Source: Clostridia bacterium
Lineage (GTDB): Bacteria; Bacillota; Peptococcia; DRI-13; SV3-B141
Reading direction: 5' to 3'
DNA: 64,000 bases
Assembly (NCBI GenBank): GCA_018433015.1
Contig: JAHDSB010000017.1
Coordinates: 456-64,455 of the forward strand
The notes below the pieces were generated by a model. The model had not been told where the DNA came from, did not search any database, and was given only the letters and a program-made list of their open reading frames with translations. Every line of letters starts with the position of its first letter. The stretch's first letter is position 1. This document shows positions 1-62,797 of the stretch, piece after piece. The position numbers and the translations under genes are program-made.

Positions 1-683
1 TCTTTCACCCTACCCGTTAAGTAATAATCTATCATTGCTTTCATTTGCTTGCCGGCTACATGAGCGGCAACACTGACAACTCCATAGCCTCCTATGGCCA
101 AAACAGGAAGGGTTAGCAAATCTTCCCCTGTATACACCCTGAAGCCAGCCGGGGCCTCTTTTACAATTCTTGATATTTTATCAAATTCCCCTGTGGCTTC
201 TTTTAGACAAGAAATATTAGGGATTTCTGCTATTTGCAATAAAGTATCAGCATCCATATTCAAACCGGTTCTGCCTGGAACATTGTAAACCATCACGGGA
301 AGCTGGGCAGCCTCGGCTATAGCCTGATAATGGGCATAAAGCCCTTGTTTATTGGGTTTATTATAGTAAGGCACTACAGCCATTACACCATCTATTCCTG
401 TTTTTCTTACTTTCTCTGCTAAAACAGCAGATTTTTTTGTATTATTTGAACCCACATTAGCAATTACAGGTATTTGAACAGCTGATTTTACTGTGGCAAA
501 TAGCGCCAGTCTTTCTTCGTCTGTTAAAGTTGGACTCTCTCCGGTAGTTCCTGCCAAAACTAAAGCTGACGAACCTTCTTTTTCTAACTTTTTAGCCAAA
601 TTCGCTGCTTTTTCCAGATCAAGCCTGCCTTCATTGTCAAAAGGAGTCACCATAGCCGTAATTAAATGTCCCCAATCATTCAT
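1..683 (-). CDS. dapA: 4-hydroxy-tetrahydrodipicolinate synthase, first ~227 codons (3' end lies beyond window start)
   Basis: Absent from the ORF track because it runs off the edge. My minus-strand translation from the ATG at 683 reads MNDWGHLITAMVTPFDNEGRLDLEKAANLAKKLEKEGSSALVLAGTTGESPTL..., a DapA/NAL-family N-terminus including GTTGE. AGGAGGA lies at 690-696. Track ORFs 94..288 and 493..699 are antisense to it. Confidence 0.9.
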   Translation of the reverse strand, partial: MNDWGHLITAMVTPFDNEGRLDLEKAANLAKKLEKEGSSALVLAGTTGESPTLTDEERLALFATVKSAVQIPVIANVGSNNTKKSAVLAEKVRKTGIDGVMAVVPYYNKPNKQGLYAHYQAIAEAAQLPVMVYNVPGRTGLNMDADTLLQIAEIPNISCLKEATGEFDKISRIVKEAPAGFRVYTGEDLLTLPVLAIGGYGVVSVAAHVAGKQMKAMIDYYLTGRVK

Positions 684-1172
684 TAAGAATCCTCCTTAAA
701 ATCTATTTCCGCAATAACACAACTAAAACGGGGTGTACCGGTTGACGATAAATACTGGGTATGTTGGGCGTTACCTCTTTACACCAGCATACATAAATTT
801 TTCCTCTTTTCCCATACTAGTTTACTTCACCACCTGCAATTTAAACACAAATATTTTATTACTCATCACAAGGTGAGTAGCTTTATTTTAATTATATCTT
901 TTAGATTTTACAAGTCAATGAAAGCCGCTGCAATATTTGCAAAATTTTAATTTTTATAATTTTTCTCTATCAATATACCCTAACTTACTTAAAAAACAAG
1001 GGTTTTTAATATTACCTTAAGCCAACTGCGATAAGTATTGTCCCCTATTTACTGAGATAATATTTTTTTACTATAATTATTATATTATAACTATTATTAA
1101 ATTGCTAAAATAATAATTTTTATATAAATTGTAAATATTTTTATTCTAAATTCTGAAAATATATGTTATTTT

Positions 1173-1316
1173 ATCTATAGGCGGCTTCTCATTAGATGAT
1201 GAGCAGCTGCATATCTGCTGGAGGTGTAAGAAGGAAGCAAGAATACGATGTTGGATCAATCCTATAGATTCTCAAGTTAACCCCAAGGAGGTGATCTGGA
1301 GAGTTTCTTGGTTTTT
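1173..1316 (+). promoter_or_regulatory. Candidate cis-regulatory leader RNA (unclassified aptamer-like fold plus intrinsic terminator) upstream of the symporter
   Basis: A 9-bp closing helix, ATCTATAGG (1173-1181) with CCTATAGAT (1261-1269), encloses two local hairpins: CTCAT 1188-1192/ATGAG 1199-1203 and CAGC 1204-1207/GCTG 1217-1220. It is followed by the hairpin CCAAGGAG 1283-1290/TTTCTTGG 1304-1311 and TTTTT at 1312-1316. No + strand gene lies upstream that this terminator could serve. Confidence 0.35.
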
Positions 1317-1350
1317 CAGTTAATTTAAATAAATGGAAGGAGGTCCTTTA

Positions 1351-2799
1351 ATGTCCGTAGGTTCAGTTTTTTGGATCATCACCCTAATAATGTGTGGTAT
1401 CTTCCTCTGGATTTCTTGGAGAGTAAAAGACCAAGCTACTGCTTCTTTTTCTAACTATGCTATAGGCGGCGGTTCATTCCCTATTTATTTGATTTTATGT
1501 ACCCAGTTTGCTACCATTATGGGTGTTGGTAACTTTGTTGGCCACGCTGGCAAAGGTTATTCTTTAGGATTAGCTTGGATTCCCTTTATTTTAGGAGAAC
1601 AAGGCTCAAAAATACTATTTGCTCTGCTTTTTGCCGGAATAGCCGGAAAATTTACATATAATACTGTAGCTGAAATGGCAGATGACTTATTTGTACGTGA
1701 TAAAATAACACGGGCCTTGGCAGGAATTCTTGCCAGCTGTATCATGATTGCCTGGGTAGGTGGGCAAGGTAAAGCATTTGGTAATATCTTTAACGTTGCT
1801 ACAGGTGCTAGCCCAACTTTAGTTATTATCTTCTTCTCCTGCGTCTTTATCTTATATACAACCTTGGGCGGTATTTATTCTGTTGTTTGGACAGATCTAT
1901 TCCAAGGCGTTCTCGTCCTGATCTTCGGTACTACTTTTTATATTATGGCATTTCAACCCGTTAACTGGAGTATGGCAGAGTTGGGGGCAAAGTTAGCCGT
2001 TATCGGTCAGGCTGACCTTTTTAGTTGGGAAAAAGTTGATGCTTTAGGAGCACTAAATAAGTTTATCACCGGTACGGTAGGCGTGCTTTCTGCTCAAATA
2101 TACTGGCAACGCTGTTTTTCTGCTAAGAATGGAAAAACGGCCCGCAATGGTTTATTATTCAGCGGTATTCTTGCCGTCATCATGGTTGTTCTCACTGCTT
2201 TAGTAGGCTTAGTCATCTTAACTATGAAACAAGGTTTAAATCCCGACGACGCTATGCCCTGGATGATGTTAAATTACATGCCTATCTGGCTTTCTGCTAT
2301 GGTATTTTCTCTAATTCTTGCTGCCGGAATGTCTTCTGCTGATTCTAACTTAAACTCAGCAGCCATACTAATAACTAATGATTTAATCAGACCGTTTCGC
2401 CCCGATTTAACAGATAAGGATTTAGTTAAAGCAGCTACTTGGTTAACAGTAATTATTGGTATATTCTCCTGTGTTGCGGCCCTTAAAGCTGCTTCCATTC
2501 TAAGTTTATTTTCCAGAGCATATGCTATGGCCGGCGGTGGTCTCGTTCCCTTATTACTAGTTGGTTTCTTGTGGAAAGAGAATAAAAATGAGGCTTTTAA
2601 AATGGGAGTTAAAAATAGTAAGATAACTCCTTGGGGAGCTAGAGTTGGTTTAGTGGCCGGTGCAGTAATGACACAATTGTCTGTTTTAGGTCCTAATCGC
2701 GTAATAATTGCTCTTATCACCGCAGTTTTACTTATTATAATTATATCTTCTTTTACCCGTGGTGCTTCTTCCTCTACACCTCAGGTTATTAATAAGTAA
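1351..2799 (+). CDS. Sodium:solute symporter (SSF) family transporter
   Basis: Track ORF 1333..2799. The protein is polytopic and hydrophobic throughout, with an SSF-like layout. I prefer the ATG at 1351 (MSVGSVFW...) because GGAGG at 1338-1343 precedes it. Confidence 0.8.
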   Translation: MSVGSVFWIITLIMCGIFLWISWRVKDQATASFSNYAIGGGSFPIYLILCTQFATIMGVGNFVGHAGKGYSLGLAWIPFILGEQGSKILFALLFAGIAGKFTYNTVAEMADDLFVRDKITRALAGILASCIMIAWVGGQGKAFGNIFNVATGASPTLVIIFFSCVFILYTTLGGIYSVVWTDLFQGVLVLIFGTTFYIMAFQPVNWSMAELGAKLAVIGQADLFSWEKVDALGALNKFITGTVGVLSAQIYWQRCFSAKNGKTARNGLLFSGILAVIMVVLTALVGLVILTMKQGLNPDDAMPWMMLNYMPIWLSAMVFSLILAAGMSSADSNLNSAAILITNDLIRPFRPDLTDKDLVKAATWLTVIIGIFSCVAALKAASILSLFSRAYAMAGGGLVPLLLVGFLWKENKNEAFKMGVKNSKITPWGARVGLVAGAVMTQLSVLGPNRVIIALITAVLLIIIISSFTRGASSSTPQVINK

Positions 2800-2840
2800 T
2801 TATTAATGTTTCCCCTAAAAGCATTTGTTCGGAGGTCTAC

Positions 2841-3569
2841 ATGTTAAAAGAATTAGATAAAAAAGAATTACTCATTCTGGAAATGATTAATGAAGCGTCG
2901 CAACCCATAGGTTCCTGGAATATTGCTAATAGATTGGCTGAAGATCAAATTGAAACAAGTTCTGCTACAATTGGACGCATCCTTAATAAATTGGAAAATA
3001 TGGGTTATCTGAAAAAAGAAAAGTTTCGTGGCAGAGTTATAACTGATGAAGGACAACATGCCATTCTGTTAAACAAACAACTTAAAAATATGACTAATCA
3101 TCAAAATAAGCTTCTTAAATATATTGATCCCAGAATACTGGAAGATTTCCTAGTTGTCTTGGAAGCACGCCGAACAGTGGAAAGGGGTACAGCTCGTCTT
3201 GCGGCATTACGAGCTACTAAAGAAGAAATTACTCATATGGATAGAATATTAACAATCCAGGAGGTAAAGCATAAAGAACAACAATGGATAACAGACGATG
3301 ACCTGGATTTCCACAAAACTATTGCTAAAGCTTCGGGTAACGGTATCTTAGAAGTGATGTATAATCAATTATCAATCTTTGGGCAGCAATCAAGGGCCTT
3401 TGAACTTTTGCGTAAAACTATTAATGCTGAATACATGGTGTCTCATCGTCGCATCTATGACGCCATCTGCATGAAAGACCCTGAAGAAGCTGAAAAAGCT
3501 ATGCTAGCCCACATAGATAGTCTGATGGCTGATGTTGATAAATACTGGGAAAAATATTTTAAAAAATAA
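2841..3569 (+). CDS. Transcriptional regulator with an N-terminal winged helix and a C-terminal FCD (FadR C-terminal) domain
   Basis: Track ORF. The C-terminal half carries the FCD-like DLDFHKTIAKASGNGILEVMYNQL motif. The N-terminus (IGSWNIANRLAEDQIETSSATIGRILNKLENMGYL) is wHTH-like but not the classic GntR signature. RBS GGAGG is present. Confidence 0.7.
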   Translation: MLKELDKKELLILEMINEASQPIGSWNIANRLAEDQIETSSATIGRILNKLENMGYLKKEKFRGRVITDEGQHAILLNKQLKNMTNHQNKLLKYIDPRILEDFLVVLEARRTVERGTARLAALRATKEEITHMDRILTIQEVKHKEQQWITDDDLDFHKTIAKASGNGILEVMYNQLSIFGQQSRAFELLRKTINAEYMVSHRRIYDAICMKDPEEAEKAMLAHIDSLMADVDKYWEKYFKK

Positions 3570-3594
3570 AAGATAAAATCTTATATAATAAGAT

Positions 3595-3620
3595 AACCCG
3601 AGGCTTTTGTCTCGGGTTTG
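3595..3620 (+). terminator. Rho-independent terminator after the regulator gene
   Basis: AACCCGAG / CTCGGGTT stem followed by a T-rich tail. Confidence 0.7.
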
Positions 3621-3746
3621 CTAATTCTTCTAAATTTAATGAATAGATAATCTATGGACAGTTAGGTTTACCTTCTGTTTCTTTTTTTATACAATAGTTG
3701 TATTATAAGCTGTAATGACTAAAAACTGGCCAAGGAGGCCCGCTTA

Positions 3747-5777
3747 ATGAAGATAAAATTATTTAAAAATCTAGCAGTCCTTTGTCTCACTGTTTCACTG
3801 CTTTTACAAAATGTTGTACTCCTCACCCCCGCTTATGCTGCAAAAGATAGACCTCAGGAAAATCTCATTCCTCAACCCCAACCCACTAAAGCAACTAGCA
3901 TCCAGTTGATAAAAAAATCTATGAAAATAAATTGGTTGGAAGACAAAGCGGAGATAACGGTACTATATGAACTATTTAATCCCCATAAGTATAACAAACT
4001 TCTTCCCATGCAGATTTCCCTGCCTTTAGATGAAGAAAAAAAAGAAACAGACAAGGAAAACACGGAAAATAGTGATTTTGCAAAGCCTGATCCACCTTTA
4101 ACTATATTTGTCCAAGATGAAGAAATACCAACAAATTATAGTAGCAGACAAACAAAATATTCCTGGAATATAACCTTTAAACCGGAAGAAAAGAAAGAAG
4201 TTACCATTCATTATAGTATTAAGCTCAAAGGCAACAAGGAACTTCCTCTTACAATTAACGTCAATAATCAAGGACCTACTAAGTGGAATGAAGAACTAGG
4301 ACAATCCTCGCTAACCCTCTACTTTAAAGAAATTCATCCAGGTCTCATCGTGGATATAATGCCTAAAACTTATGAGCTCAAAAATAATTCCCTCATCTGG
4401 CATTGGAATAGTGTGAGCAGTATCGACAATATTTCTGTAAAAGCTAATCTGTACCAGGAACAAGAGATGTGGCAAAGTCTTTTACCCGAACAAGCAAAAC
4501 ATTCCTTGCTGGAATTAGATGAAACCAACAACTACTCAGCTTGTGCAGATTTATTAAAAAAATACGCTCAAGATGTTTCTAAAGAGGAAAAATATGTACT
4601 GATGCTGGGGCAAGCCTACTATTTTAAAAAAACCGGGGAGCTAGACGAAGCCAAAGATTTATGGGAGTATCTCTACAAAAAAGATGTATTATTTCCCCGT
4701 GTTTATTGGGAGTTAGGAAATTATTATTTCAATAAACCCAGTAAAATTGAATCCTATTATGAGCACGTAAAAGAATTACAAGTACATCCTCTGCTGCAAA
4801 AATGGTTGGCTCAGCAAATACCTAATGAAAACGCTGAAGAATCTCCACCGGAAATAAGGGAGACCTCTACCCTGGTAAATAAAACCCTAGATGGGTTAGT
4901 TTTAAAAAGTAATATAGCTGATAAAGATGGTAATATAAAAAAAATAACCTTTAAGTATTGCTGGGAAGACGAACCTGTAGAAGAATATACTACTTTTGTA
5001 CAACCCTTCTTCTATGTTTATAAACCTCTACATTTTATTCCTACTTTTAAACCATATCAGCGTCTCTTTTATGAAATAATTGTGGAAGATTTTAGTGGCA
5101 ACACCACCACAACAGGTCAAAAAGAAGTCTTTTATCTAAATAAAGATATTCCTAGTGAAACCTTTATCCTTAAAGGAGCCAATCTTGTTCTGGGAGACTT
5201 TACTTCTAAAGAGCAAGAAAAAGTTTATAAATGGTTTAAAAGTTATTTAAAAATGGCTAAAGACGCTAAATTTATCCCAGTAGAAGGGCGTAACCCTTAT
5301 TTTATCTGTCTGGGTCAAGACCATAAGTTTATCAAGGAATATAAAGGTCCCTATTTTATTAAATACACTCCTGCTCCTTTTTCTCCCCAAGCAATGAAAC
5401 TCCAGGTACATCGCTACTTCCTTTCCTATTGGTTTGGTGGGGGTTGGGAACAACTTAATGTTGAAGATCTGGAACCCCTAGGTGATGCTCTTCTTTTAGG
5501 CAAAGGATCTGTAGTTCTCACCCTGAAATATCTAAAGGATGAAAATCCCCATAAGTTCCTCGAGCTGCTATCTACTATAGGACAAGGCAATACGTGGGAA
5601 CAAGCCTTAAGCAAAACTTTTTTCCTTACCCCTAAAGAAGCTCGCTTAAAAGGTATTTGGCATGCCTATGGAAATAATGTTTTAGCTGTATTTATTATTG
5701 TCTTTTGTGCCTGGTTAGGAAAAACCGGATATTTGATAAAATTCTTGAATTTTGTGCGCTCCAAATCTACTGTTTAA
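3747..5777 (+). CDS. Secreted, C-terminally membrane-anchored protein of unknown function (676 aa)
   Basis: Track ORF with a strong RBS (AAGGAGG). N-terminal signal peptide ...LLTPAYA/AKD. TPR-like segment (GQAYYFKKTGELDEAKDLWEYLY). C-terminal TM helix (NVLAVFIIVFCAWLG). I recognise no family. Confidence 0.6.
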   Translation: MKIKLFKNLAVLCLTVSLLLQNVVLLTPAYAAKDRPQENLIPQPQPTKATSIQLIKKSMKINWLEDKAEITVLYELFNPHKYNKLLPMQISLPLDEEKKETDKENTENSDFAKPDPPLTIFVQDEEIPTNYSSRQTKYSWNITFKPEEKKEVTIHYSIKLKGNKELPLTINVNNQGPTKWNEELGQSSLTLYFKEIHPGLIVDIMPKTYELKNNSLIWHWNSVSSIDNISVKANLYQEQEMWQSLLPEQAKHSLLELDETNNYSACADLLKKYAQDVSKEEKYVLMLGQAYYFKKTGELDEAKDLWEYLYKKDVLFPRVYWELGNYYFNKPSKIESYYEHVKELQVHPLLQKWLAQQIPNENAEESPPEIRETSTLVNKTLDGLVLKSNIADKDGNIKKITFKYCWEDEPVEEYTTFVQPFFYVYKPLHFIPTFKPYQRLFYEIIVEDFSGNTTTTGQKEVFYLNKDIPSETFILKGANLVLGDFTSKEQEKVYKWFKSYLKMAKDAKFIPVEGRNPYFICLGQDHKFIKEYKGPYFIKYTPAPFSPQAMKLQVHRYFLSYWFGGGWEQLNVEDLEPLGDALLLGKGSVVLTLKYLKDENPHKFLELLSTIGQGNTWEQALSKTFFLTPKEARLKGIWHAYGNNVLAVFIIVFCAWLGKTGYLIKFLNFVRSKSTV

Positions 5778-9462: not shown

Positions 9463-10291
9463 AGACCTTTTTCACTATAGTTTTCTCCAGCATGCCGTAA
9501 TAAGCGCAATTTTAGCCAGTATCGCCTGCGGCATCATCGGTACCATTATCTTGGAAAAAAAGTTAATTATGATGAGCGGTGGCATAGCTCACACAGCTTT
9601 TGGAGGTATTGGACTAGGATATTTTTTAGGCATAGAACCAATGATAGGGGCTTTATTCTTCTCTATTCTCGCCGCCTTAGCAATACCGCAAATACAAGCT
9701 AAAACGGGTACAAGTTCCGAAGTTATAATGGGGATGTTTTGGTCCCTGGGCATGGCTTTAGGTATCCTCTTTATCGCCCTGATGCCAGGTTACCCCCCCG
9801 ACTTACCTTCCTATCTTTTTGGTGATATTTTGACAGTTACTTCCTTTGATATAAGAGTTATGGTTCTTTTAAATCTAATAATACTGGCCATTATAAGCTC
9901 CTTATATCAACAATATAAAACTTTGTTGTTTGATGAAGAATTTGCCACAGTAATCGGCTTACCTGTATCTCTTCTAAAAAATCTGCTTTTTGTTTTAATC
10001 GCTCTTACTGTAGTAATTCTGATAAGAGTTGTTGGTATAATTCTAATTATAGCTTTATTGACCGTCCCGCCTTCTATAGCTAAAATATTTACAAGTAATT
10101 TAAAAAAAATAATGTTGTTATCCTCTTGTTTAGGTATAGTCTTTTGCTTACTAGGGCTATGGTGCTCATATTCCTTACAGATACCTTCAGGTGCTGCCAT
10201 AATTATTCTCTCGGTAACCAGCTACTTAATGCTATCCCTGTTTTTAAAGATAAAGAAACCTGGAAAAATCAGCATATCAAAAGAAAGTTAG
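9455..10291 (+). CDS. znuB: Metal ABC transporter permease
   Basis: Overlaps znuC by 8 nt. Polytopic membrane protein of the ZnuB/TroC type. Confidence 0.8.
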   Translation: MLKDLFHYSFLQHAVISAILASIACGIIGTIILEKKLIMMSGGIAHTAFGGIGLGYFLGIEPMIGALFFSILAALAIPQIQAKTGTSSEVIMGMFWSLGMALGILFIALMPGYPPDLPSYLFGDILTVTSFDIRVMVLLNLIILAIISSLYQQYKTLLFDEEFATVIGLPVSLLKNLLFVLIALTVVILIRVVGIILIIALLTVPPSIAKIFTSNLKKIMLLSSCLGIVFCLLGLWCSYSLQIPSGAAIIILSVTSYLMLSLFLKIKKPGKISISKES

Positions 10292-53969: not shown

Positions 53970-54261
53970 TAAACAGCCCCCTTGTCATAACTCTTGTTCT
54001 TTTAGTTTGAGCATAAATTCTATATTAATTTCAATACTTATGAACATAATTTTCCTCTAGTATAGCATAAAAACCTATTATAAAGGAAATGACAAAATGA
54101 TCGTTTCTGCTAAATTCATCTTCCAGGACTTTACTCCTAAATTGCTTTACAATATAATATGTTTATATCATTTATTTATTGATATATATATATAATATAT
54201 AAATATAAATAAAACTATAATAGTAATTGTTTATGGTACACAAGAGAGGAGAAACTAAACG

Positions 54262-56367
54262 ATGCTAAAGAATTTCAAGATTAAAACAAAAATAATGGTT
54301 ATGATAGGGCTTGTGGTTTTGCTGGCCTTTATAATTACTAATACCATTGTAGCAACTAAGTCAACAAATATGGCCCAGGAATCTGCTTTCAGCATAGCCC
54401 AAGCCACAGCTGATGAATACGGCAATAAAGTAAAAGCAGAGATGGAAATTGCTATGGACAGTGCCAGAACCGTAGCTCAAACATTTAAAGGTTTAAAAAA
54501 AGTAAATATAACGGATAGAGAAGCTCTAAACGAGATTTTAAAGACTGTCTTACAAGAAAATCCCGCTTTTCTTTCTGTTTGGACCTGCTGGGAACCTAAT
54601 GCCTTAGATGGTAAAGATCTCGAGTTTATTAATAAACCGGGTCATGATGAAACAGGACGCTTTGTATCTCTGTGGAACAATGATGGGGGAAGTATCCATG
54701 TGGAACCTCTGGTGGATTATGATACTCCCGGTACCGGTGATTATTATTTAAATGCTAAAAATACAACACGCGAAGTGATTGCCAACCCCTACTTATATCC
54801 TGTCAATGGGAAAGATCAGCTAATTACAAGCTTAGTTACTCCCATTATTTATGATGGAAAATTTGTGGGAGCAGTAGGAATAGATATTTCTTTAGATACT
54901 TTTCAGGAAATGATTACACAGATAAAACCTTTTGACACCGGATACGCTGCCCTTATTGACAATACCGGGAGCTATGTGGCCCATATTGATACTGGTCATA
55001 TCGGTCAAAACATAGGCAATACCGAGGAAAGAACCACTGCCAAAAAAGCTATAGTTCAGGGTAAAGGCTATGAAACTATACTCACCTCTAATTTGACAAA
55101 TGAAGAAGTTTTAAGAATCTTTACACCTATCGTTGTAGGAAATTCTACAACACCCTGGTCCCTTGCTATTAGTGCACCTATGGATAAAGTGTTAGCAGAT
55201 GCCCATGCTATGAGAAATTATTCTTTAGGAGTAGCAGGCATTTCTATTATTATTATCTTATTAGTAATCTTTTTAGCAGCAAGCAGTATTACTAAACCCA
55301 TTCTTCAAACTACTGCAGTATTAAAAGATATTGCGGAAGGAGAGGGTGATTTAACTAAAAGACTAGAGGTTAAAACAAAAGATGAGCTGGGAGAATTGGC
55401 CCAGTATTTTAATAGATTTATCGGGGATATTCAAAGTATTGTAGGGGAAGTATTAGATAATACTCAGGAACTTAGTGCTTCTAGTGAGGAACTTTCCGCT
55501 ACAGTAGAAGAGATCTCCGCCCAATCTCAAAATGTTAGCTCCAACACTCAAGAGATCGCTGCCGGTATGGAAGAAACCAGCGCTACTACTGAAGAAGTTA
55601 CAGCTTCTGCAGAAAATGTACATAACGCTGCAGTAAGATTAGCCCAGAAGGCTGAAGAAGGAAATCGTTTAATACAAGAAATCAGGCTTAAAGCCGAAAA
55701 GATTAAAACAGATGCCACAGAATCCAGTAAGGTTGTTCACGAATTATATAATGAAAAACAGGCGGGTGTAATAAAAGCTATAGAAGAAGGACAAGTTGTG
55801 GCAGAAATACAAAATATGGCTCAGGTAATCTCCGATATTGCGGAACAAACTAATCTTTTAGCTTTAAATGCTGCTATAGAAGCCGCCAGAGCCGGAGAAC
55901 AAGGAAGAGGTTTTGCCGTTGTAGCGGAAGAAGTTCGTAAGTTAGCAGAGCAATCAGCAGAGACAGTGACCAGTATTCAAGGTGTAATAAAACAAGTCCA
56001 AGCTGCCTTCCATAACTTATCTGAAAATGCTAATGGTGTGTTAGATTTTATTGATAATAAAGTTATTGGAGACTACGAAGCCTTAGTTGAAATAGGAGTA
56101 CAATATCAAAAAGATGCAGATTATGTAGGTAAAATGGTAGAAGAATTTGCTTCTAACGCCCAACAAATTAATCAATCTACTGAAGAGGCCGACAAAGCTA
56201 TGGAAGAAATCGCTCAGGCTATAGAACAAGCCAATACAGGTACTCAAGAGATCTCTAATACCATAACGGAAACTACAAACGCCATTGAAGAAGTAGCAAA
56301 TGTAACTCAGAAACAGGCTACCTTAGCAGAAAAATTAAACATGTTAGTTCATAAATTTAAAATTTAA
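54262..56367 (+). CDS. Methyl-accepting chemotaxis protein (Cache-type sensor, HAMP, MA domain)
   Basis: Two TM helices flank a ~280-aa extracellular domain. Highly conserved signalling hairpin [34 protein letters not shown]. Confidence 0.9.
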
Positions 56368-56505
56368 ATAAAAAACTTTAACCTAACTTCCCTCAAATAA
56401 GAAAGAGCCCCGTTGTTAGGCGGGGTATCATAGGGACAAAAAGTGAACCGGGTATAAATCCCTGTGATGGGGCGGACAGTTTCGGCTGTCCGCCCTTTTC
56501 TGTGT

Positions 56506-57611
56506 TTACGCGGCGGGGCCCGTACTGGCTGATGTGGCGTCGCTGGCGGCGGCAGGGGTATCGTCCATTAAGATGGCATCCCCCTCGTCCAACTCGTCCT
56601 CCTGCGCTTTTTCTGGCTCCACCGGTGTGTCCATCAGGCCGATGTCCCGGTTGTCCTGCTAGGCGGTGCGGGAATACTTCTGCGACTTTTCGCCCACCAC
56701 AATTTTCTCAATGAACAGCCGCAGGATTTCCGGCGTGAGCTCCATAATGTCGCTGCAGCGCTTGGCCTTGTCAATAAACTGCGCGCCACGTTACTCAGTG
56801 AGTTTCGGAGCTGTTCCAGCCGTTGCTCCTACTTTGGAAGCTTTTCCCGTAATTCCGCCTGTTCTGTAGTATACTCCGAGGAGAGCAATCGGAAGTGTTC
56901 GTTGGGAATTCGTCCCAGCACATTGTCCTCATAGAGCCGCTTGAACAGGGTTGTAGGCTCGCCGTCTCGTCGCTTCAGGGTGTGTCAATCTCACGCTGGA
57001 TGCGGGCGATCTCCTGCCGGGTTTCGGCGGTGTTCTTGCGAGTGATATGCTCGACAAACAGCTTTTCCTTCTGCCGGGCATAATGGGTAATCCGCTTTAA
57101 GTCATCCAGCACAATGGTTTTGAGCTGGATTTCCCGGATGTAGTGGACGGTGCACTCCTCTTTCCCGCGCTTTTTGTAGGTAGAGCACATGAAGTTGTTC
57201 TACGTTTCTTTCATGGTATGCGCCCTGTGGAGCACCAGCGTGCCGCCGCAGTCGGCGAAATACACTATTCCAGAAAAAAATTGGGCGTATAAATTTGCTT
57301 GGGTGGGCGCTTTTTGTGCTTACGGATGTCCTGCACGATGTCCCACAGCAAGTCGTTGTCGCCGTACAGGCTATCCACGTTGTTGTTGATGGCGATAAAG
57401 CGGACACCGTAGCTGGGGAAAATCATCTCCGTATACTGCCCCACCAGTAGATAATCCCTGCCGAGCCATGACATATCCTTGACGACGAGAGTTGCGACCT
57501 GATCGCTTTCCACCAGCTATCGGACAGCGTTTCCACAACCTCTCTCATGGTCATGCCCGCCCGGACAATGTAGGATTTGATTTCGTTCCTGTAAGTATCG
57601 CTTTTTCTCAT
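56506..57611 (-). pseudogene. Large serine recombinase, disrupted by frameshifts, internal stops and deletions
   Basis: Minus-strand fragments in three frames:
- ESDQVATLVVKDMSWLGRDYLLVGQYTEMIFPSYGVRFIAINNNVDS (resolvase-domain end);
- FMCSTYKKRGKEECTVHYIREIQLKTIVLDDLKRI (zinc-ribbon region);
- LFKRLYEDNVLGRIPNEHFRLLSSEYT and ELTPEILRLFIEKIVVGEKS (C-terminal coiled-coil region).
At least three in-frame stop codons are present. No catalytic-Ser N-terminal motif is recognisable. Confidence 0.8.
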
Positions 57612-57792
57612 GTTGCCTCCATATTTTTTGTTTGCTCCGCCCAAATAGCGAACAAGATGAAAATAGGCAAAAAATACGCTGTATCCGGTTTTTCGCGCCG
57701 AGTACAGCGTATTTCGTTTGTGGCACAATCCCACCTAGCAAATGCCTGCTTTTTGGGATTACTGTCTTACGGACATCCGCTCATCTTTAGCC

Positions 57793-58248
57793 TCATCGCA
57801 CTCTCGCCAGCATCTCCTCGCCGGAGATTTTACCCTCCACATAATCCCGACGGGCCTGACTGGCGGTGGCGGACCAGGATTTAAACTGTTCCTCGGTCAA
57901 GTCCCTACCGCTGTGTTCCTCGGCATATTTCCCCACAGCCCGGTACCTGCGGGAATAGACCTTGTTGTACTCGGTGAGATATTGCAATAAAAACGTGTCG
58001 GCTTCAATACCTTTTTCAAAGAACAGCTTTGCCCCCACCTGCTTGCAGGTCCGCTTGCCCCTGTATGGTCTGTTGCAGAAATCCCGCTTACGTTTATCGG
58101 TCAGCACGAAATACCGTCCGCAGAGCTTACAATGCTTTACGTACTGTCCGTTTTTCAGCATCTCGGTAAATTCAAAGAACAGCATCTCATCCAGATACTC
58201 AATCAGGTAATAGGGCATCAGGCTCACGCCCTCGCCGTCCTGATGCAT
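57793..58248 (-). pseudogene. C-terminal portion of a Cys-rich accessory protein typical of serine-recombinase elements (probably N-terminally truncated)
   Basis: Track ORF with CKLCGRYFVLTDKRKRDFCNRPYRGKRTCKQVG. I believe this matches DUF6076, but the name is from memory. An in-frame TAG lies 24 codons upstream of the first Met and no RBS is present. The terminator AATACGCTGTA/TACAGCGTATT (57673-57713) follows. Confidence 0.45.
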
Positions 58249-58443
58249 GATCTCCAGTACGGCTGGAGCAGCAGCGTCCCCAACCTGTCCGGCAAGCTGA
58301 AACGCGTCTCCCTACGCTACGGGCGAGGCGGTGGAGCTGGCCAAGGTGCTCGGATACGAAATTATTTGGCAGAAACGAAATAGGTATAATAATTAAAAAT
58401 GTACGATGCAGTGTATTGCTTCAATACTTCTATTCTATTATTA

Positions 58444-58472
58444 TTGACATCTAAAAACAAAAACACTATAAT
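58444..58472 (+). promoter_or_regulatory. Consensus SigA/sigma-70 promoter of the PadR operon
   Basis: TTGACA (58444-58449), a 17-nt spacer, then TATAAT (58467-58472). Confidence 0.7.
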
Positions 58473-58523
58473 ATCAATACACGATATCGATACTCGATAT
58501 TTAAGGCGCGGACGGAGGTTACA

Positions 58524-58835
58524 ATGAAAAATAAAATGCGAGGGCCACTGACAGAACCCATGCTTTATGTGCTGATGGCCTTTTTAAAACAAGATATGTG
58601 TGGCATTGATATTACAGAATATGTGAACCAGCGTACAGGGGGCCGCGTACACCTTGGCCCGGGTACGTTGTATACGATATTGGCAAAATTTCAGGAGGAC
58701 GGCCTGATTGAGGAGGTCGCCGTAGATGGCCGCAAGCGAACGTATCATCTGACGGATAAAGGCAGAGAGACCTATATGGGGGAACTGGAACGTCTACAGA
58801 AATGCTTACAAGATGGGGAGAATGCGTTGCGATGA
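58524..58835 (+). CDS. PadR family transcriptional regulator
   Basis: 103 aa. wHTH with GPGTLYTILAKFQEDGLIEE. RBS GGAGG. Confidence 0.9.
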   Translation: MKNKMRGPLTEPMLYVLMAFLKQDMCGIDITEYVNQRTGGRVHLGPGTLYTILAKFQEDGLIEEVAVDGRKRTYHLTDKGRETYMGELERLQKCLQDGENALR

Positions 58836-59983
58836 GTAAAAAAAGCTGTTGGAAGTTGATACCGGTCAACGGATATGATATTTCTGCCATTGAATGCTAC
58901 TTAGAGCGCATGGCGGCGCAAGGGTTCCTTTTTTCCATGACCGCCGGACCGCTCACTTTATTCTGCCGCGAGGAGCCCAAAGCACTGCAGTTCCATCTCG
59001 AGCCGATACTCAGCAGGGCCGAAGAAGATGCCGAACTGAATGCGCTGTATGAAGATGCCGGCTGGAAGTATCTGGGTATTTTTCGGAACAATTACTTTGT
59101 CTTTGCAACGGAGAACCTGGAGGCGGAAGCCCACACCGACCCCGAAGCACTGGACTATGTGCTAAAGCGCTTTTCCAGACAAAAGCTCCTCAGCGGACTT
59201 GGACTGCTGGCGTTTAACGTTTTCCTGATCGCACTTTATCGCGACGGATGGCCGGGCAGTTTCGGCTGGACCGAGCTGCAATATTTTCCGGTAGAAAGCA
59301 TCAGCAAATATCCGGTGCTGCCCTTATTGCTGTCTGTAGCGGGCCTTCTTCTGCTGGATCTTTCCTATTTGCTGGGATTGCTGTGCCTGCGCCGTTGCCG
59401 CGTAGTAAAAAGCGCAGGCAGGGTATCCCGTTCCGGTTGTCTCCTGGTGGTGGGCATCTTCGTTCTGATTCCTGTGGCGCTGAACACCATTCAACTGTTC
59501 TCCGGACTGGGGTATCGGCCGATTGATTTGGCTGACTCCAATTTTGTTACGCTAAGCGAAATTGAAGGGCCGGAATTTCGTCTCACCGGCGACAGCATGT
59601 ATGCCATGGACTACATTTCCCATGGCGGGACCCTGCTGGACCCGGAATCCTGGTATCTCCGGCAATATGGAGCCTACTCCCATTTCGATGGTGGGATTGA
59701 TATCAACAATGTTCCGCACTTGATTTTGTCTATTTCCCGCTATCCCCTGGATTCCCTGGCTGAGAAACGCACACAGGAGTGGTGTGCCTATAGAGCCGGG
59801 GAGGAGAATTATCAAAATTTGTTGCCTGTCGATGGTCTGGATGAGGCTTATCTGCTGCAAGGCAATCAAAAATGCTATCTTGTTTTGCGTCAGGGCAGAA
59901 CTGTTTTGCGTGCAGACTATCAGGGAGAACAAGACCTGAGCGGATTTCTCAAACGCTTTGCACAGATGATGCAAGCTTTGTAA
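58832..59983 (+). CDS. DUF2812 domain membrane protein
   Basis: Track ORF 58802..59983. The ATG at 58832 overlaps the padR stop (ATGA). The N-terminus (CWKLIPVNGYDISAIECYLERMAAQGFLF) is DUF2812-like. Internal TM helices are present. Confidence 0.75.
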   Translation: MSKKSCWKLIPVNGYDISAIECYLERMAAQGFLFSMTAGPLTLFCREEPKALQFHLEPILSRAEEDAELNALYEDAGWKYLGIFRNNYFVFATENLEAEAHTDPEALDYVLKRFSRQKLLSGLGLLAFNVFLIALYRDGWPGSFGWTELQYFPVESISKYPVLPLLLSVAGLLLLDLSYLLGLLCLRRCRVVKSAGRVSRSGCLLVVGIFVLIPVALNTIQLFSGLGYRPIDLADSNFVTLSEIEGPEFRLTGDSMYAMDYISHGGTLLDPESWYLRQYGAYSHFDGGIDINNVPHLILSISRYPLDSLAEKRTQEWCAYRAGEENYQNLLPVDGLDEAYLLQGNQKCYLVLRQGRTVLRADYQGEQDLSGFLKRFAQMMQAL

Positions 59984-60026
59984 ACAGAAATGACTGCGCT
60001 CAAAACGAGCAGGAAAGGAGACATCT

Positions 60027-61271
60027 ATGAAAACAGTTTATAAGATCCTTCCCGTATCCATCTTCGATATCCCGGGTTTGGAACAGTGGCTAGAGGAACA
60101 AGCCAATCAAGGCCTTTCTCCTGTACATCTCGGTTCCTATGCCAGCTTTACAAAAGACGGCGTACCCGGCACGCGGTACCGTCTGGAGCCTTTGGGGAAA
60201 ATGGGCACGGAGCCCACGCCGGAGCAGCTGGAATTGTACCACAGCGCCGGATGGGAATATGCCTTTCCCATTGCCCGAGCCTATTTCCTTTTTTATACCA
60301 CAGATCCCGATGCCCCAGAGCTGTACTCAGATCTGGCCACACGGGGACAGTCTCTGGACCGCTTAGCAAAGCAAATTAAAAGCACCAGGGTTAAACGCTT
60401 GCTCATTCCGGTTCTTGTGGTTGTAGTGCTGTTGGCTGCGATGCTCTGGCCAGTAAGTCGTTTTGATGTGCAGCCTGACCGGTGGGCCAACTTTCCGATC
60501 CTGCTGCTCTATTTAACCAACCCTATGCTTCTCATTTTCGTCATAACAGTCGCTTTTCAGCTACCACGTGAGTTTCGAGAGTATCGCACACTACTAAATA
60601 CCCATGAAGCACTAAAAAGCGGGCTGATTCCACCGCCGTCACAAATCTCAGGAAAGAGGATTGCTTTTGAAAATATCTCGCAATTGATACTCCTTCCTGT
60701 ACTGGTGCTTTGCTTAATTCTAAACTATATCATCCCGCAGAACAAACCGTTATCACAGTTCGAATTGCCCTATGTGTCCCTGTCGGACATGGAAAATAAA
60801 GATCTTTTTACTTATGATGAGTTGTTTGGTGAAAGCTCCTACTATTCCGAAGATAAAAATCAGACGAATCGGCAATTCTCACTGCTGTCTCCCGGGTGGT
60901 ATGAGGTATCGCAGTATCTCCACAGCGCTCAGGCAGGCACACAGACCAACGCTTTTTCGCCCAACCCAGAGGGCGGCAAATACCGCTATTCTCCCAGCTT
61001 GGATATGGTCCGCTTTTCGCTTCTGGTGTCCGCTTTAAGCCGGTCTGTGGCAGAAGCGCAGTTGGATGCTTACCGGCTTATCAATGTTTATTGGACCTAT
61101 GAGGAAGTGGACTATCCCGGCACCGACTTTGTAATTTTGGCGAAGGAAGAGGATGGGATCTGGCAAATGGCCGCTTTGGGAAGCGGAAAGCATGTGGCCG
61201 TATTCCGCTACGCCGGGCAGGAGAAATTGGCCGACCGCCTAGATTTGCTTTCCAGCATGGTCAATCCGTAG
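60027..61271 (+). CDS. DUF2812 domain membrane protein (second copy)
   Basis: The N-terminus (YKILPVSIFDIPGLEQWLEEQANQGLSP...YHSAGWEY) is DUF2812-like. TM helices are present. RBS GGAAAGGAG. Confidence 0.75.
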   Translation: MKTVYKILPVSIFDIPGLEQWLEEQANQGLSPVHLGSYASFTKDGVPGTRYRLEPLGKMGTEPTPEQLELYHSAGWEYAFPIARAYFLFYTTDPDAPELYSDLATRGQSLDRLAKQIKSTRVKRLLIPVLVVVVLLAAMLWPVSRFDVQPDRWANFPILLLYLTNPMLLIFVITVAFQLPREFREYRTLLNTHEALKSGLIPPPSQISGKRIAFENISQLILLPVLVLCLILNYIIPQNKPLSQFELPYVSLSDMENKDLFTYDELFGESSYYSEDKNQTNRQFSLLSPGWYEVSQYLHSAQAGTQTNAFSPNPEGGKYRYSPSLDMVRFSLLVSALSRSVAEAQLDAYRLINVYWTYEEVDYPGTDFVILAKEEDGIWQMAALGSGKHVAVFRYAGQEKLADRLDLLSSMVNP

Positions 61272-61506
61272 AAAGCGAAAAGGCTGACCGGTATGATGAA
61301 AAGAAAGCTCTTGCCAAGGATTTTCATTTCAGAATAAACATCATAAGCGATGCCTCTAAAAAAGCAAACCAGAATCTCTTCCCACAGGAAAAGTTCGGAT
61401 TTGCTTTTTTATTTCCGTATCCAGTTTGCCTTATGGGGTGGGTTCACAACTTATCCTTGTGACTTCCCGTTATTATGCTGGGCTCTTCCTTATTTCACCC
61501 ATTCTT

Positions 61507-61535
61507 TTGACACGTTTTCTTAATTGGTTTATTAT
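61507..61535 (+). promoter_or_regulatory. SigA-type promoter of pepT
   Basis: TTGACA (61507-61512), a 17-nt spacer, then TATTAT (61530-61535). It lies just right of the right inverted arm. Confidence 0.55.
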
Positions 61536-61570: not shown

Positions 61571-62797
61571 ATGCAAGAAGTAGTGAATCGCTTTCTTCGT
61601 TATGTACAATTTGAAACTACCAGTGATGAAAATTCCTTAACCTGCCCCAGCACTGAAGGACAACTGGTTTTTGCTCGCCAGCTGGTTAAAGAACTGCAAG
61701 ATCTAGGGCTAACTGATGCTCAAGTAGATAAAAACGGATACGTTATGGCTACTTTGCCTAGCAATACAAAGAAAAAGGCTCCTGTCATCGGTTTTATAGC
61801 TCACCTGGACACTGCCCCTGATTTTTCCGGTAAAAATGTTAAACCCCAAATAGTCAAGAATTATCAAGGGGGCAATATTCTTCTTAACAAAGATAAAAAT
61901 ATTTATTTGCGAGAGGATTATTTTCCTGAACTGAAACTATATTACAATCAGGATCTGATAACTACCGATGGAACTACATTGCTTGGAGCTGATGATAAAG
62001 CAGGAATCGCTGAAATAATAAGTGCCGTGGCCTATCTTATAGAACACCCGGAGATGGAACACGGCACTATTCGGATAGCCTTCACCCCCGATGAAGAAAT
62101 CGGCACAGGTACTCAGAACTTTGATATACAAAAATTCGCAGCCAATTTTGCTTACACAGTCGACGGCAGTCAGATCGGTGAATTGGAAACAGAGAATTTT
62201 AATGCTGCTTCTGCTACCATCGCCATCAAAGGTATCAACGTTCATACAGGCTCCGCCAAAAATAAAATGGTTAATTCACTTCTTTTAGCCCAGGAATTGC
62301 TCAGTCATTTTCCTGCTCGGGAAATACCTGCAAAAACCGCAGGTTATGAAGGGTTTTATCATCTTCATGATATGACGGGTTCCGTAGAAGAAACTGTACT
62401 GAGAATCCTTATCAGAGATCACAATAAAAGGAAGTTCCAGTACCGCAAAGACTTTATAGAGTCCTGTTGTAAAGCTCTTAACAAAAAATACAGTCATGAT
62501 TACATAACTTTAGAAATAAAGGACAGCTACTATAATATGAAGGAAATAATTGACCAGCATCCCCATGTCTTTGAACTAGCCCTAAAAGCACTTCAAGAAT
62601 TGAATATTAAACCTAAGCTCACACCTATCCGAGGGGGTACAGACGGGGCCCATCTCTCCCACATGGGACTTCCTACCCCCAATCTTTTTGCTGGTGGTCA
62701 TAACTTTCACGGTAAATATGAGTTTATCCCCATACCCTCTATGGAAAAAGCTGTGCAAACTATCATCAAAATCTGTGAACTAGCAGTAGAAATCTAA
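61571..62797 (+). CDS. pepT: Peptidase T (tripeptide aminopeptidase, M20B)
   Basis: N-terminus RFLRYVQFETTSDE, GFIAHLDT and GADDKAGIAEI metal-binding motifs. Size 408 aa. Confidence 0.9.
   Translation: MQEVVNRFLRYVQFETTSDENSLTCPSTEGQLVFARQLVKELQDLGLTDAQVDKNGYVMATLPSNTKKKAPVIGFIAHLDTAPDFSGKNVKPQIVKNYQGGNILLNKDKNIYLREDYFPELKLYYNQDLITTDGTTLLGADDKAGIAEIISAVAYLIEHPEMEHGTIRIAFTPDEEIGTGTQNFDIQKFAANFAYTVDGSQIGELETENFNAASATIAIKGINVHTGSAKNKMVNSLLLAQELLSHFPAREIPAKTAGYEGFYHLHDMTGSVEETVLRILIRDHNKRKFQYRKDFIESCCKALNKKYSHDYITLEIKDSYYNMKEIIDQHPHVFELALKALQELNIKPKLTPIRGGTDGAHLSHMGLPTPNLFAGGHNFHGKYEFIPIPSMEKAVQTIIKICELAVEI

Follow-up and report, generated by a model that had tools for sequence, protein, structure and literature searches.

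Large serine recombinases (LSRs) with a DUF4368 domain belong to the TndX-like, "multi-targeting" clade of Durrant et al. 2022 (PMC10083194). One such integrase uses a TT core with T/A-rich ends, and the site of Cp36 is A-rich on the 5' side of an AA core and T-rich on its 3' side (PMC10083194). Among integrative mobilizable elements (IMEs), IME_Rho_tet is of the LSR type, its 3' boundary lies 81–90 bp after the recombinase stop codon, and its genes are all in one orientation (PMC12904643). Of the 256 elements whose recreated integration site has a match in GenBank, 116 (45%) lie in MAFF2 open reading frames (ORFs), the terminal inverted repeats of 21 bp are conserved, and a class I SAM methyltransferase is listed for the element (PMC12904643). 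Here, we describe an island of 5.06 kb (positions 56416–61474) located between the gene of a methyl-accepting chemotaxis protein (MCP) and pepT in contig JAHDSB010000017.1 of a Clostridia bacterium. The window is the whole stretch of 64,000 nucleotides that was analyzed, and all positions refer to it unless a comparison contig is named. The island is very probably the eroded remnant of a Clostridia integrative mobilizable element with a GC content of ~50%, which was inserted by a TndX/TnpX-like DUF4368 LSR into a hairpin following the MCP gene.

The GC content of the window climbs from 0.33–0.40 to 0.50–0.57 at ~56.4 kb and drops at ~61.3 kb, to ~0.40 just before pepT. A preliminary description of this DNA, made from the sequence alone, had noticed a GC-rich block right after the MCP stop codon and the return of AT-rich sequence before pepT, and the measured values bear this out. 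The GC content of positions 56416–61474 is 0.502, compared to 0.367 in the remaining window. In 103 host windows of 5 kb it ranges from 0.338 to 0.393 with a standard deviation of 0.013, and the island is more than ten standard deviations higher. Codon usage and k-mers, which the preliminary description proposed to compare, differ as well. The GC content at third codon positions (GC3) is 0.50–0.67 in the genes of the island and 0.27–0.36 in the MCP, UPF0182, and pepT genes, whereas the tetranucleotide distance of the island is 0.043 against a host maximum of 0.029, which makes the island an outlier. The composition of the MCP gene is host-like (GC 0.378, GC3 0.271). Comparison contigs are denoted as L-numbered loci; L001, L002, L083, L084, L085, and L100 are from the same species as the window, and L086 is from a sister species. 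Because of the shifts in GC, GC3, and tetranucleotides, and because it is absent from L086, the island is foreign DNA.

The borders of the island and its host context are formed by the following features:

54262–56367, plus strand: MCP gene, host context (Pfam dCache_1, HAMP, MCPsignal); its stop codon is 48 nt before the crossover dinucleotide
56395–56410, plus strand: left arm B of the split host hairpin, AAATAAGAAAGAGCCC; complementary to 61480–61495 at 15 of 16 positions and present in no related element
56411–56415, plus strand: left half of the former loop, CGTTG, host-derived; outside the homology to related elements, which begins at 56416
56416–56417, plus strand: putative TT crossover dinucleotide at attL; start of homology in relatives and dyad center of attB and attP
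56418–56500, plus strand: conserved element end P' (AGG CGGGGTATCATAGGGACAAAAAGTGAACC...); 78–86% identical to related element ends, holds a hairpin with a T-run
56510–57513, minus strand: LSR pseudogene with a Resolvase fragment, Zn ribbon, coiled coil, and DUF4368 (three-frame translation, tblastn against the L091 LSR, Pfam)
61412–61472, plus strand: conserved element end P (...GGTTCACAACTTATCCTTGTGACTTCCCG TTA); 95% identical to the end of L087 and 86% to that of L095, present in L104
61473–61474, plus strand: putative TT crossover dinucleotide at attR; dyad center of attB and attP, spacing as in L104
61475–61495, plus strand: right half of the former loop (ATGCT) and right arm B' GGGCTCTTCCTTATTT, the arm itself at 61480–61495; absent from the sister species
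61507–61535, plus strand: pepT promoter TTGACA-17-TATTAT; 12 nt past the right arm, conserved in L086, untouched by the insertion
61571–62797: pepT, host gene to the right of the island

The position of the element ends is indicated by related elements, which were gathered from the closest homologues of the recombinase and by a scan for the conserved end sequence. They are located in unrelated metagenomic contexts (L087, L091, L092, L094/95, L103, L104-106, L107, and L108). Nine related copies are homologous to the island from position 56416–56421 onward, and the flanks beyond this point differ in every copy. For six copies (L087, L091, L092, and L094/95), the BLAST homology starts exactly at 56416. 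Junctions of L103, L104, L107, and L108, which were read directly, contain the same TT followed by AGG/AAG-CGGGGT[A/G]TC. At eight independent insertion sites other than that of the window, a TT separates the conserved end ...CGGGGT[A/G]TCATAGGGAC from flanking sequence that is unrelated, and in eight of the nine copies the homology ends at a TT; the ends of the family can be written as the motifs CGGGGTATCATAGGGAC and CCTTGTGACTTCCCG. At the right end, the homology to L087 and L095 spans 61412–61469, and L104 has a matching end with a 3-nt spacer from ...CTCG to TT, as in the window. Because the homology starts inside the inverted arms and the flanks differ in every related copy, the arms are host DNA rather than the ends of the element.

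The arms AAATAAGAAAGAGCCC and GGGCTCTTCCTTATTT and the direct repeat next to them were pointed out in the preliminary description, and both are present at the positions given there. The arms are complementary at 15 of 16 positions in the window. The left arm of L001 reads AAATAAGGAAGAGCCC, with G in place of the A of the window, which raises the match to 16/16. A 15/16 pair located anywhere in 5.5 kb is not rare (~0.4 expected by chance), whereas at two fixed junctions such a pair was found in none of 20,000 random pairs of host junctions (analytic expectation ~6e-6). In-silico deletion of the island joins the arms into a hairpin with the loop CGTTGTTATGCT. The preliminary description correctly anticipated that a single hairpin would be restored; the loop that it gave, cgttattatgct, differs by one letter, depending on which copy of the direct repeat is kept. 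The reconstructed hairpin has 44 bp with the layout 16+5+2+5+16 and starts 28 nt after the MCP stop codon. With the arm of L001, it reads AAATAAGGAAGAGCCC-CGTTG-TT-ATGCT-GGGCTCTTCCTTATTT and has a perfect 16-bp stem. Its calculated folding energy is −21.1 kcal/mol for the allele of the window and −28.0 kcal/mol for that of L001. The outer parts of the arms are A-rich and T-rich, the inner stem is GC-rich, and the 3' arm ends with CTTATTT. The hairpin had been placed directly upstream of the pepT promoter, and the promoter match indeed begins 12 nt after the right arm.

Joining of the host halves gives the reconstructed attB site AAATAAG(G)AAGAGCCC-CGTTG-TT-ATGCT-GGGCTCTTCCTTATTT, and joining of the element halves gives the reconstructed attP site ...GGTTCACAACTTATCCTTGTGACTTCCCG-TTA-TT-AGG-CGGGGTATCATAGGGACAAAAAGTGAACC..., which can also be written as ...GTGACTTCCCG-TTA-TT-AGG-CGGGGTATC.... 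A blind scan for dyad centers found the best center between the two T's of the TT in both attB (19/36) and attP (20/36), and the arms of attP match at 20 of 33 positions in register (P ~1.6e-5). Since the break of homology, the symmetry of attB, and the symmetry of attP converge on the same dinucleotide, the 2-bp TT in the center of the hairpin loop is the probable core at which the strands crossed over. The preliminary description took the direct repeat for the shared core. Its copies, CCCGTTGTTA (56409–56418) and CCCGTTATTA (61466–61475), have the consensus CCCGTT(G/A)TTA, and apart from the TT the repeat is better read as microhomology between attB and attP around the core, with the G derived from the host and the A from the element. 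The analogous microhomology of L095 is different, ACTT(T/A)AAG. Only the central dinucleotide would then be truly common to attL and attR, which is the architecture expected of serine integrases.

The recombinase gene adjoins the left element end, and its stop codon is 88 nt from the core. Stitched fragments of the pseudogene match the Pfam families DUF4368 (PF14287, 9.3e-13), Zn_ribbon_recom (PF13408, 2e-9), and Resolvase (5e-3). The fragments are 58–85% identical (tblastn) to the intact 565-aa LSR of L091, which contains the Resolvase, Recombinase, Zn ribbon, and DUF4368 domains (PF14287 at 3.2e-19). In the window, the protein lacks at least its first 56 residues, and with them the catalytic region, and residues 57–76 are unrecognizable. 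Furthermore, ~500 bp covering the recombinase domain are deleted, with the junction at 57349/57350, and the remnant contains three frameshifts and at least three in-frame stop codons. With the catalytic N-terminus lost, the ~500-bp deletion, and the frameshifts and stops, the recombinase is dead, and the island is a fossil rather than an active member of its family. The inference of the preliminary description, integration of an element into a dyad-symmetric hairpin after the MCP gene, is supported by the ends of the relatives, the LSR remnant, and the coinciding dyad centers; the term "site-specific" used there needs to be qualified for a multi-targeting clade with close relatives at many sites.

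A database query with the recombinase, which covered only the C-terminal half of the protein, had as its nine closest homologues N-terminally truncated ORFs of 233–289 aa with 71–84% identity (e.g., L087 2990–3826, L088 8001–8870, and L104 5633–6469). They are annotated as DUF4368, and most also as Zn ribbon. The truncation points cluster within ~70 nt of the deletion junction of the window (LSR residues ~290–306). This would mean either that such decay is very frequent among these elements or that there is some reason for keeping the C-terminal half. An exact breakpoint shared by the window, L087, and L088 was considered and rejected, as the junctions lie within ~70 nt of each other but are different.

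The kind of element to which the island belonged is apparent from its relatives. In L091 and L104, the LSR gene is next to genes for a MobA/VirD2-type relaxase and NikA/MobC. An intact element of the family consists of the LSR, the MobA/VirD2 relaxase, NikA/MobC, a 362-aa DUF6076 protein, and variable cargo, which is a sigma/anti-sigma pair in L087, a BlaI/BlaR-like system in L104, and a two-component system in L103. Because L091 and L104 combine the LSR, relaxase, and NikA/MobC, the family can be classified as integrative mobilizable elements. No relaxase or Mob ORF was found among the ORFs of the island (ORF list and Pfam); the island behaves like an IME and derives from one, but has ceased to be one itself. 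The preliminary description suggested a comparison with collections of mobile elements. Megablast of the whole island gave no match in the plasmid and phage sets, and blastn of the conserved end gave none in the plasmid collection; the relatives were found through the recombinase and the end sequence instead. The loci L094 and L095 (a contig of 3,047 nt, element at ~130–2890) contain a 2.75-kb element with both family ends, a class I SAM methyltransferase gene, and no recombinase, situated in a hairpin that resembles a terminator, 24 nt past a stop codon. This element is possibly a non-autonomous derivative mobilized in trans.

Elements with ends or LSR 3' halves that are 78–86% identical in DNA are located in nine different flanks. 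All three sites with both flanks known, those of the window, L104, and L095, are hairpins with TT in the loop. The L104 site is TAAAGATAAAAACAACCGGGCT-TGTTA-TT-G-AGCACCGGTTGTTTTTATCTTTA, with inverted flanks matching at 22 of 23 positions, and the L095 site is AAAAGTCCTGT...ACAGGCTTTT. In nine of nine left flanks, an A-rich segment is followed by a block containing G/C, then by 0–8 nt, and then by TT. A strict definition of the A-run and GC-block, which was set post hoc, applies to five of the nine flanks and to 5.8% of control TT sites (P ~7e-5). The distance of the core from the upstream stop codon is 48 nt in the window, 27 nt in L092, and 24 nt in L094. There is about an even chance that this LSR family chooses attB by architecture, namely the loop in the hairpin of an intrinsic and often bidirectional terminator, and not by a fixed sequence. 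The proposed order of A-tract, GC stem, T-rich loop with TT, GC stem, and T-tract may equally well hold or fail. Terminator stems closing a T-rich loop would mimic the CCCG-N3-TT-N3-CGGG center of attP. No description of serine recombinases that target terminator loops was found in the literature searched.

All seven copies of the locus from the same species (window, L001, L002, L083, L084, L085, and L100) are occupied and have the same lesions. In addition, L100 has a 406-bp deletion in the recombinase remnant at 10227/10228 of its contig, corresponding to positions 56489–56894 of the window. The erosion of the dead mobility module is therefore ongoing and polymorphic. The window and L083 are 99.64% identical in the island and 98.58% identical on the pepT side. 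In the sister species L086, pepT of which is 85% identical to that of the window, the UPF0182 gene directly adjoins pepT (L086 9808–10001 compared with window 54076–61500). The MCP gene, hairpin, and island are missing from L086 together; the homology breaks at ~54076 and resumes at ~61500–61505, just past the right arm. Since the hairpin is absent together with the MCP gene, it is tied to that gene rather than to the pepT leader, which neither confirms nor refutes a role as a terminator. The lineages of the window and L086 differ by an indel that comprises the MCP gene, its promoter, and its 3' hairpin and that is independent of the island.

The A-rich and T-rich arms, the GC-rich inner stem, and the position after the MCP stop codon make the reconstructed hairpin fit an intrinsic, probably bidirectional, terminator. 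The element has a hairpin of its own with a T-run at 56469–56496 (12 pairs, TTTTCTGTGTT tail), which now lies where a terminator of the MCP gene is needed. At the opposite end, the hairpin at 61357–61411, which ends the cargo operon, likely insulates pepT from read-through. Since the MCP transcript would run into the hairpin of the element and the cargo operon ends in a hairpin of its own before pepT, the insertion would be shielded from read-through at either border.

A transposon is classically recognized by inverted arms next to a direct repeat; the arms could then be its own terminal inverted repeats, and CCCGTT(G/A)TTA could be a 10-bp target-site duplication generated by a transposase of the DDE type. 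Such an origin is extremely improbable. It would need AAATAAGRAAGAGCCC ends on other copies, whereas the arms are kept in none of the nine related copies, in which the homology starts inside, at 56416. Moreover, the composition of the arms is host-like and AT-rich, a transposase is absent from the island, the adjacent gene being the remnant of a serine recombinase, and the repeat is imperfect, with different short microhomologies in other copies such as L095. A further explanation places the hairpin inside a larger variable segment, with the MCP gene and island arriving, or being lost in the sister lineage, as one 7.4-kb unit. The arrangement of L086, where UPF0182 is next to pepT and the MCP gene, hairpin, and island are all missing, speaks for it, as does the sensor domain of MCP, which is unusually variable between strains (~70% identity). 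Nevertheless, a joint arrival or loss is very unlikely: the MCP gene is host-like in GC and GC3, in contrast to the island with its GC of 0.50, and the exact ends of the element, at 56416 and 61474, are its own and are common to elements elsewhere that have no MCP gene. Both arms lie outside these ends, so the island must have entered a pre-existing MCP-hairpin unit.

The integration at TT could also be real while the dyad is a fortuitous pseudo-attB palindrome that resembles attP and was never the MCP terminator. The attB sites of serine integrases are generally imperfect palindromes, the half-sites of the window resemble the inner motif of attP (CCCCG-TTG-TT compared to CCCG-TTA-TT), the loop of 12 nt is long, and a clean T-run right after the stem is missing. 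This alternative is rather unlikely, as the site is 28 nt after the MCP stop codon and has a perfect 16-bp stem with A-/T-rich outer halves, a GC-rich inner stem, and a folding energy of −28 kcal/mol. The site is missing together with the MCP gene in the sister species. In two other complete sites and six further half-sites of the family, the order A-tract, GC stem, loop TT, GC stem, T-tract recurs, 24–48 nt past the stop codon of the upstream gene where that gene is clear.

Several observations weigh against insertion at TT into a terminator hairpin after the MCP gene. The 12-nt loop is larger than typical terminator loops, and the T-run is partly within the 3' arm and not strictly after it. 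The right boundary is based on fewer comparisons than the left one: the contig of L087 ends 4 nt before it, and L095 has TA in place of TT. The related element type of L093/L096 reads AA at the position equivalent to TT. No empty site with an intact hairpin was found, the sole close relative without the island, L086, also being without the MCP gene and hairpin, and a scan of viral contigs for an excised circle or an attP joint gave zero hits.

The junction sequence predicted for an empty site is GAGCCCCGTTGTTATGCTGGGCTC. A metagenome scan with the left host flank gave zero hits, and a scan of genome contigs with pepT gave nothing closer than 62% identity and no empty site among those contigs. 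An exact-protein look-up of the MCP of the window returned no record, and a homologue with 59% identity (L101/L102) is in a different context with unrelated 3' hairpins. The 17-nt pattern of the P end had only three chance matches in viral contigs, all in unrelated coding sequence (L097-L099), and a scan with a looser P' pattern gave L096 again and nothing else. The inverted complement of the left flank was not found in L087, L091, L092, L103, and L107, the contigs of which end inside the element. L096 (positions 1–5700), a contig of the viral collection, has three tandem LSR genes encoding 501, 536, and 569 aa and, like L093, a related end with AA. An ORF appears to run into the junction, and the element is of a different and larger type with a similar end.

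Insertion of a mobilizable element by its LSR into the hairpin after the MCP gene would have proceeded as follows. A circular element with an attP site consisting of two imperfect 30-nt arms around a central TT would have been brought by the recombinase to a host site of similar layout, the 44-bp hairpin that starts 28 nt past the end of the MCP gene. Exchange of strands at the TT, exactly midway in the loop, would split the hairpin into attL (56395–56417 and P') and attR (P and 61473–61495). The insertion would be tolerated, as the element brings terminators at both ends and the pepT promoter, 12 nt away, is left intact. The arrangement of L087 and L091 suggests that the element first integrated at the hairpin and then lost its mobility, while the cargo was kept. 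Mobility may have been lost when the N-terminal part of the recombinase gene, the region of the relaxase, and codons 1–205 of the DUF6076 gene were deleted and ~57514–58260 was inverted; the internal 500-bp deletion and point lesions would have come later. As the mobility functions have decayed, the element is now fixed in place.

The remaining content of the island consists of gene fragments and a cargo operon:

57514–57612, minus strand: N-terminal half of a small helix-turn-helix (HTH)-like gene (MRKSDTYRNEIKSYIVRAGMTMREVVETLSD), fused to the recombinase fragment (frame translation)
57796–58260, minus strand: fragment of a DUF6076 protein, residues 206–360 of 362, C-terminal 155 codons (Pfam DUF6076 4.7e-16)
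~58252–58383, plus strand: C-terminal half of the small HTH-like gene (...SVPNLSGKLKR...AVELAKVLGYEIIWQKRNR, then stop), frameshifted (frame translations)
58444–58501, plus strand: sigma-70 cargo promoter TTGACA-17-TATAAT (12/12) with overlapping 17-nt repeats/palindrome at 58470–58501 (promoter search, repeat search)
58524–58835, plus strand: PadR-family regulator, cargo (Pfam PadR 1.6e-13; intact in all strains)
58832–59983, plus strand: DUF2812 membrane protein 1, cargo, 383 aa (Pfam DUF2812 3e-12; same gene call in all strains; start overlaps the PadR stop, ATGA)
60027–61271, plus strand: DUF2812 membrane protein 2, cargo (Pfam DUF2812 6.8e-12)
61357–61411, plus strand: hairpin with T-run ending the cargo operon (inverted repeat, 18 nt, 89%)

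The DUF6076 fragment is 88–89% identical to the L087 and L091 proteins over residues 206–360 (tblastn), and it is inverted relative to its orientation in both contigs (blastn). Because the halves of the HTH-like gene are on opposite strands and flank the DUF6076 fragment, which is itself inverted relative to L087 and L091, the gene was probably split by an inversion of ~57514–58260. The stitched HTH-like protein has only sub-threshold Pfam matches (DUF6471, Clr5). An 81-aa ORF of L087 was considered as the counterpart of the split gene and rejected, as it codes for an N-terminal portion of the 362-aa DUF6076 protein.

The PadR-DUF2812-DUF2812 operon is intact and appears to be under purifying selection. 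Over the whole cargo, the window and L083 differ by eight synonymous and five non-synonymous substitutions. In 11 of these 13 differences (58401–61271), the window has G/C and L083 has A/T. The bias could reflect amelioration of the foreign DNA toward the AT-rich host. The repeats after the cargo promoter form the palindrome TATCAATACACGATATCGATACTCGATATT just upstream of the PadR gene, and it is possible that they are a PadR (auto)regulatory operator.

The MCP alleles of the window and L083 are ~70% identical in the dCache sensor (54300–55200) and 95–100% identical in the signaling domain, 3' UTR, and island, a pattern suggestive of replacement of the allele or of diversifying selection acting on the ligand-binding domain. 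In the spacer between UPF0182 and the MCP gene, the window and L083 align everywhere except in a (TA)n-like tract of extreme AT-richness at 54150–54240, upstream of the MCP start.

The origin proposed here explains the 5-kb compositional anomaly as the domesticated fossil of a mobilizable element. The element would have rewired the 3' end of a chemotaxis-receptor gene without harm to the MCP gene or the pepT promoter and left behind an intact operon. The clean junctions provide an example, at base-pair resolution, of site choice by a multi-targeting serine recombinase, and the window together with the eight other sites suggests a testable rule, insertion in the loops of terminator hairpins with a central TT. 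If the rule holds, it would become easier to predict where DUF4368 recombinases, enzymes of interest as tools for genome integration, will insert, and serine recombinases would join the short list of mobile-element enzymes that use terminators as safe harbors. Terminator loops would then be a generic safe harbor that provides entry to many genomes without gene disruption.

The island resembles the multi-targeting LSR clade in its domains, with Resolvase, Recombinase, Zn ribbon, and DUF4368 in the L091 protein and DUF4368 and Zn ribbon in the remnant of the window. It also resembles the clade in the presence of close relatives at many sites, the TT core with an A-rich left and a T-rich right side, and targets similar to the joint of the element. 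In contrast, the copy in the window is a pseudogene, and the sites described here are GC-stemmed hairpins just after genes and not merely AT-rich. Plasmid-borne LSR relatives are 38–45% identical in their best tblastn matches, and the likeness to the TndX-like clade is one of domains and target habit. Because the best plasmid match is only 45% identical, the element is not one of the named TndX/TnpX-type transposons, such as Tn5397 and Tn4451. The combination of LSR, relaxase, NikA/MobC, and variable cargo in L091 and L104 and the SAM methyltransferase of L095 are shared with IME_Rho_tet. The boundary 88 nt after the recombinase stop codon is comparable to the 81–90 bp of that element, the ends being compared by distance alone. 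However, the island of the window has no tet gene and has lost the relaxase and MobC.

Other mobile elements are known to use similar places by different means. Class C group II introns insert after terminator stems, Tn7 inserts after the glmS terminator, and IS1397/ISKpn1 and IS110/IS621-type elements insert in REP-like palindromes. Like the element described here, they enter or border dyad-symmetric non-coding gene ends, minimizing damage to the host. However, they depend on reverse splicing, DDE/DEDD transposases, or direction by TnsD, whereas the element of the window would have used a serine recombinase with a 2-bp core in the loop. The att sites of phiC31 and Bxb1 are imperfect dyads of ~40–50 bp around a non-palindromic dinucleotide, with hybrid attL and attR sites in which 2 bp are truly common. 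The att architecture of the element in the window is the same. Unlike this family, which uses many sites, phiC31 and Bxb1 have one fixed attB, often intragenic, and no DUF4368. The island thus adds a further, inactive member to an already known type of element, and the apparent preference of its family for terminator-like loops is the main lead.

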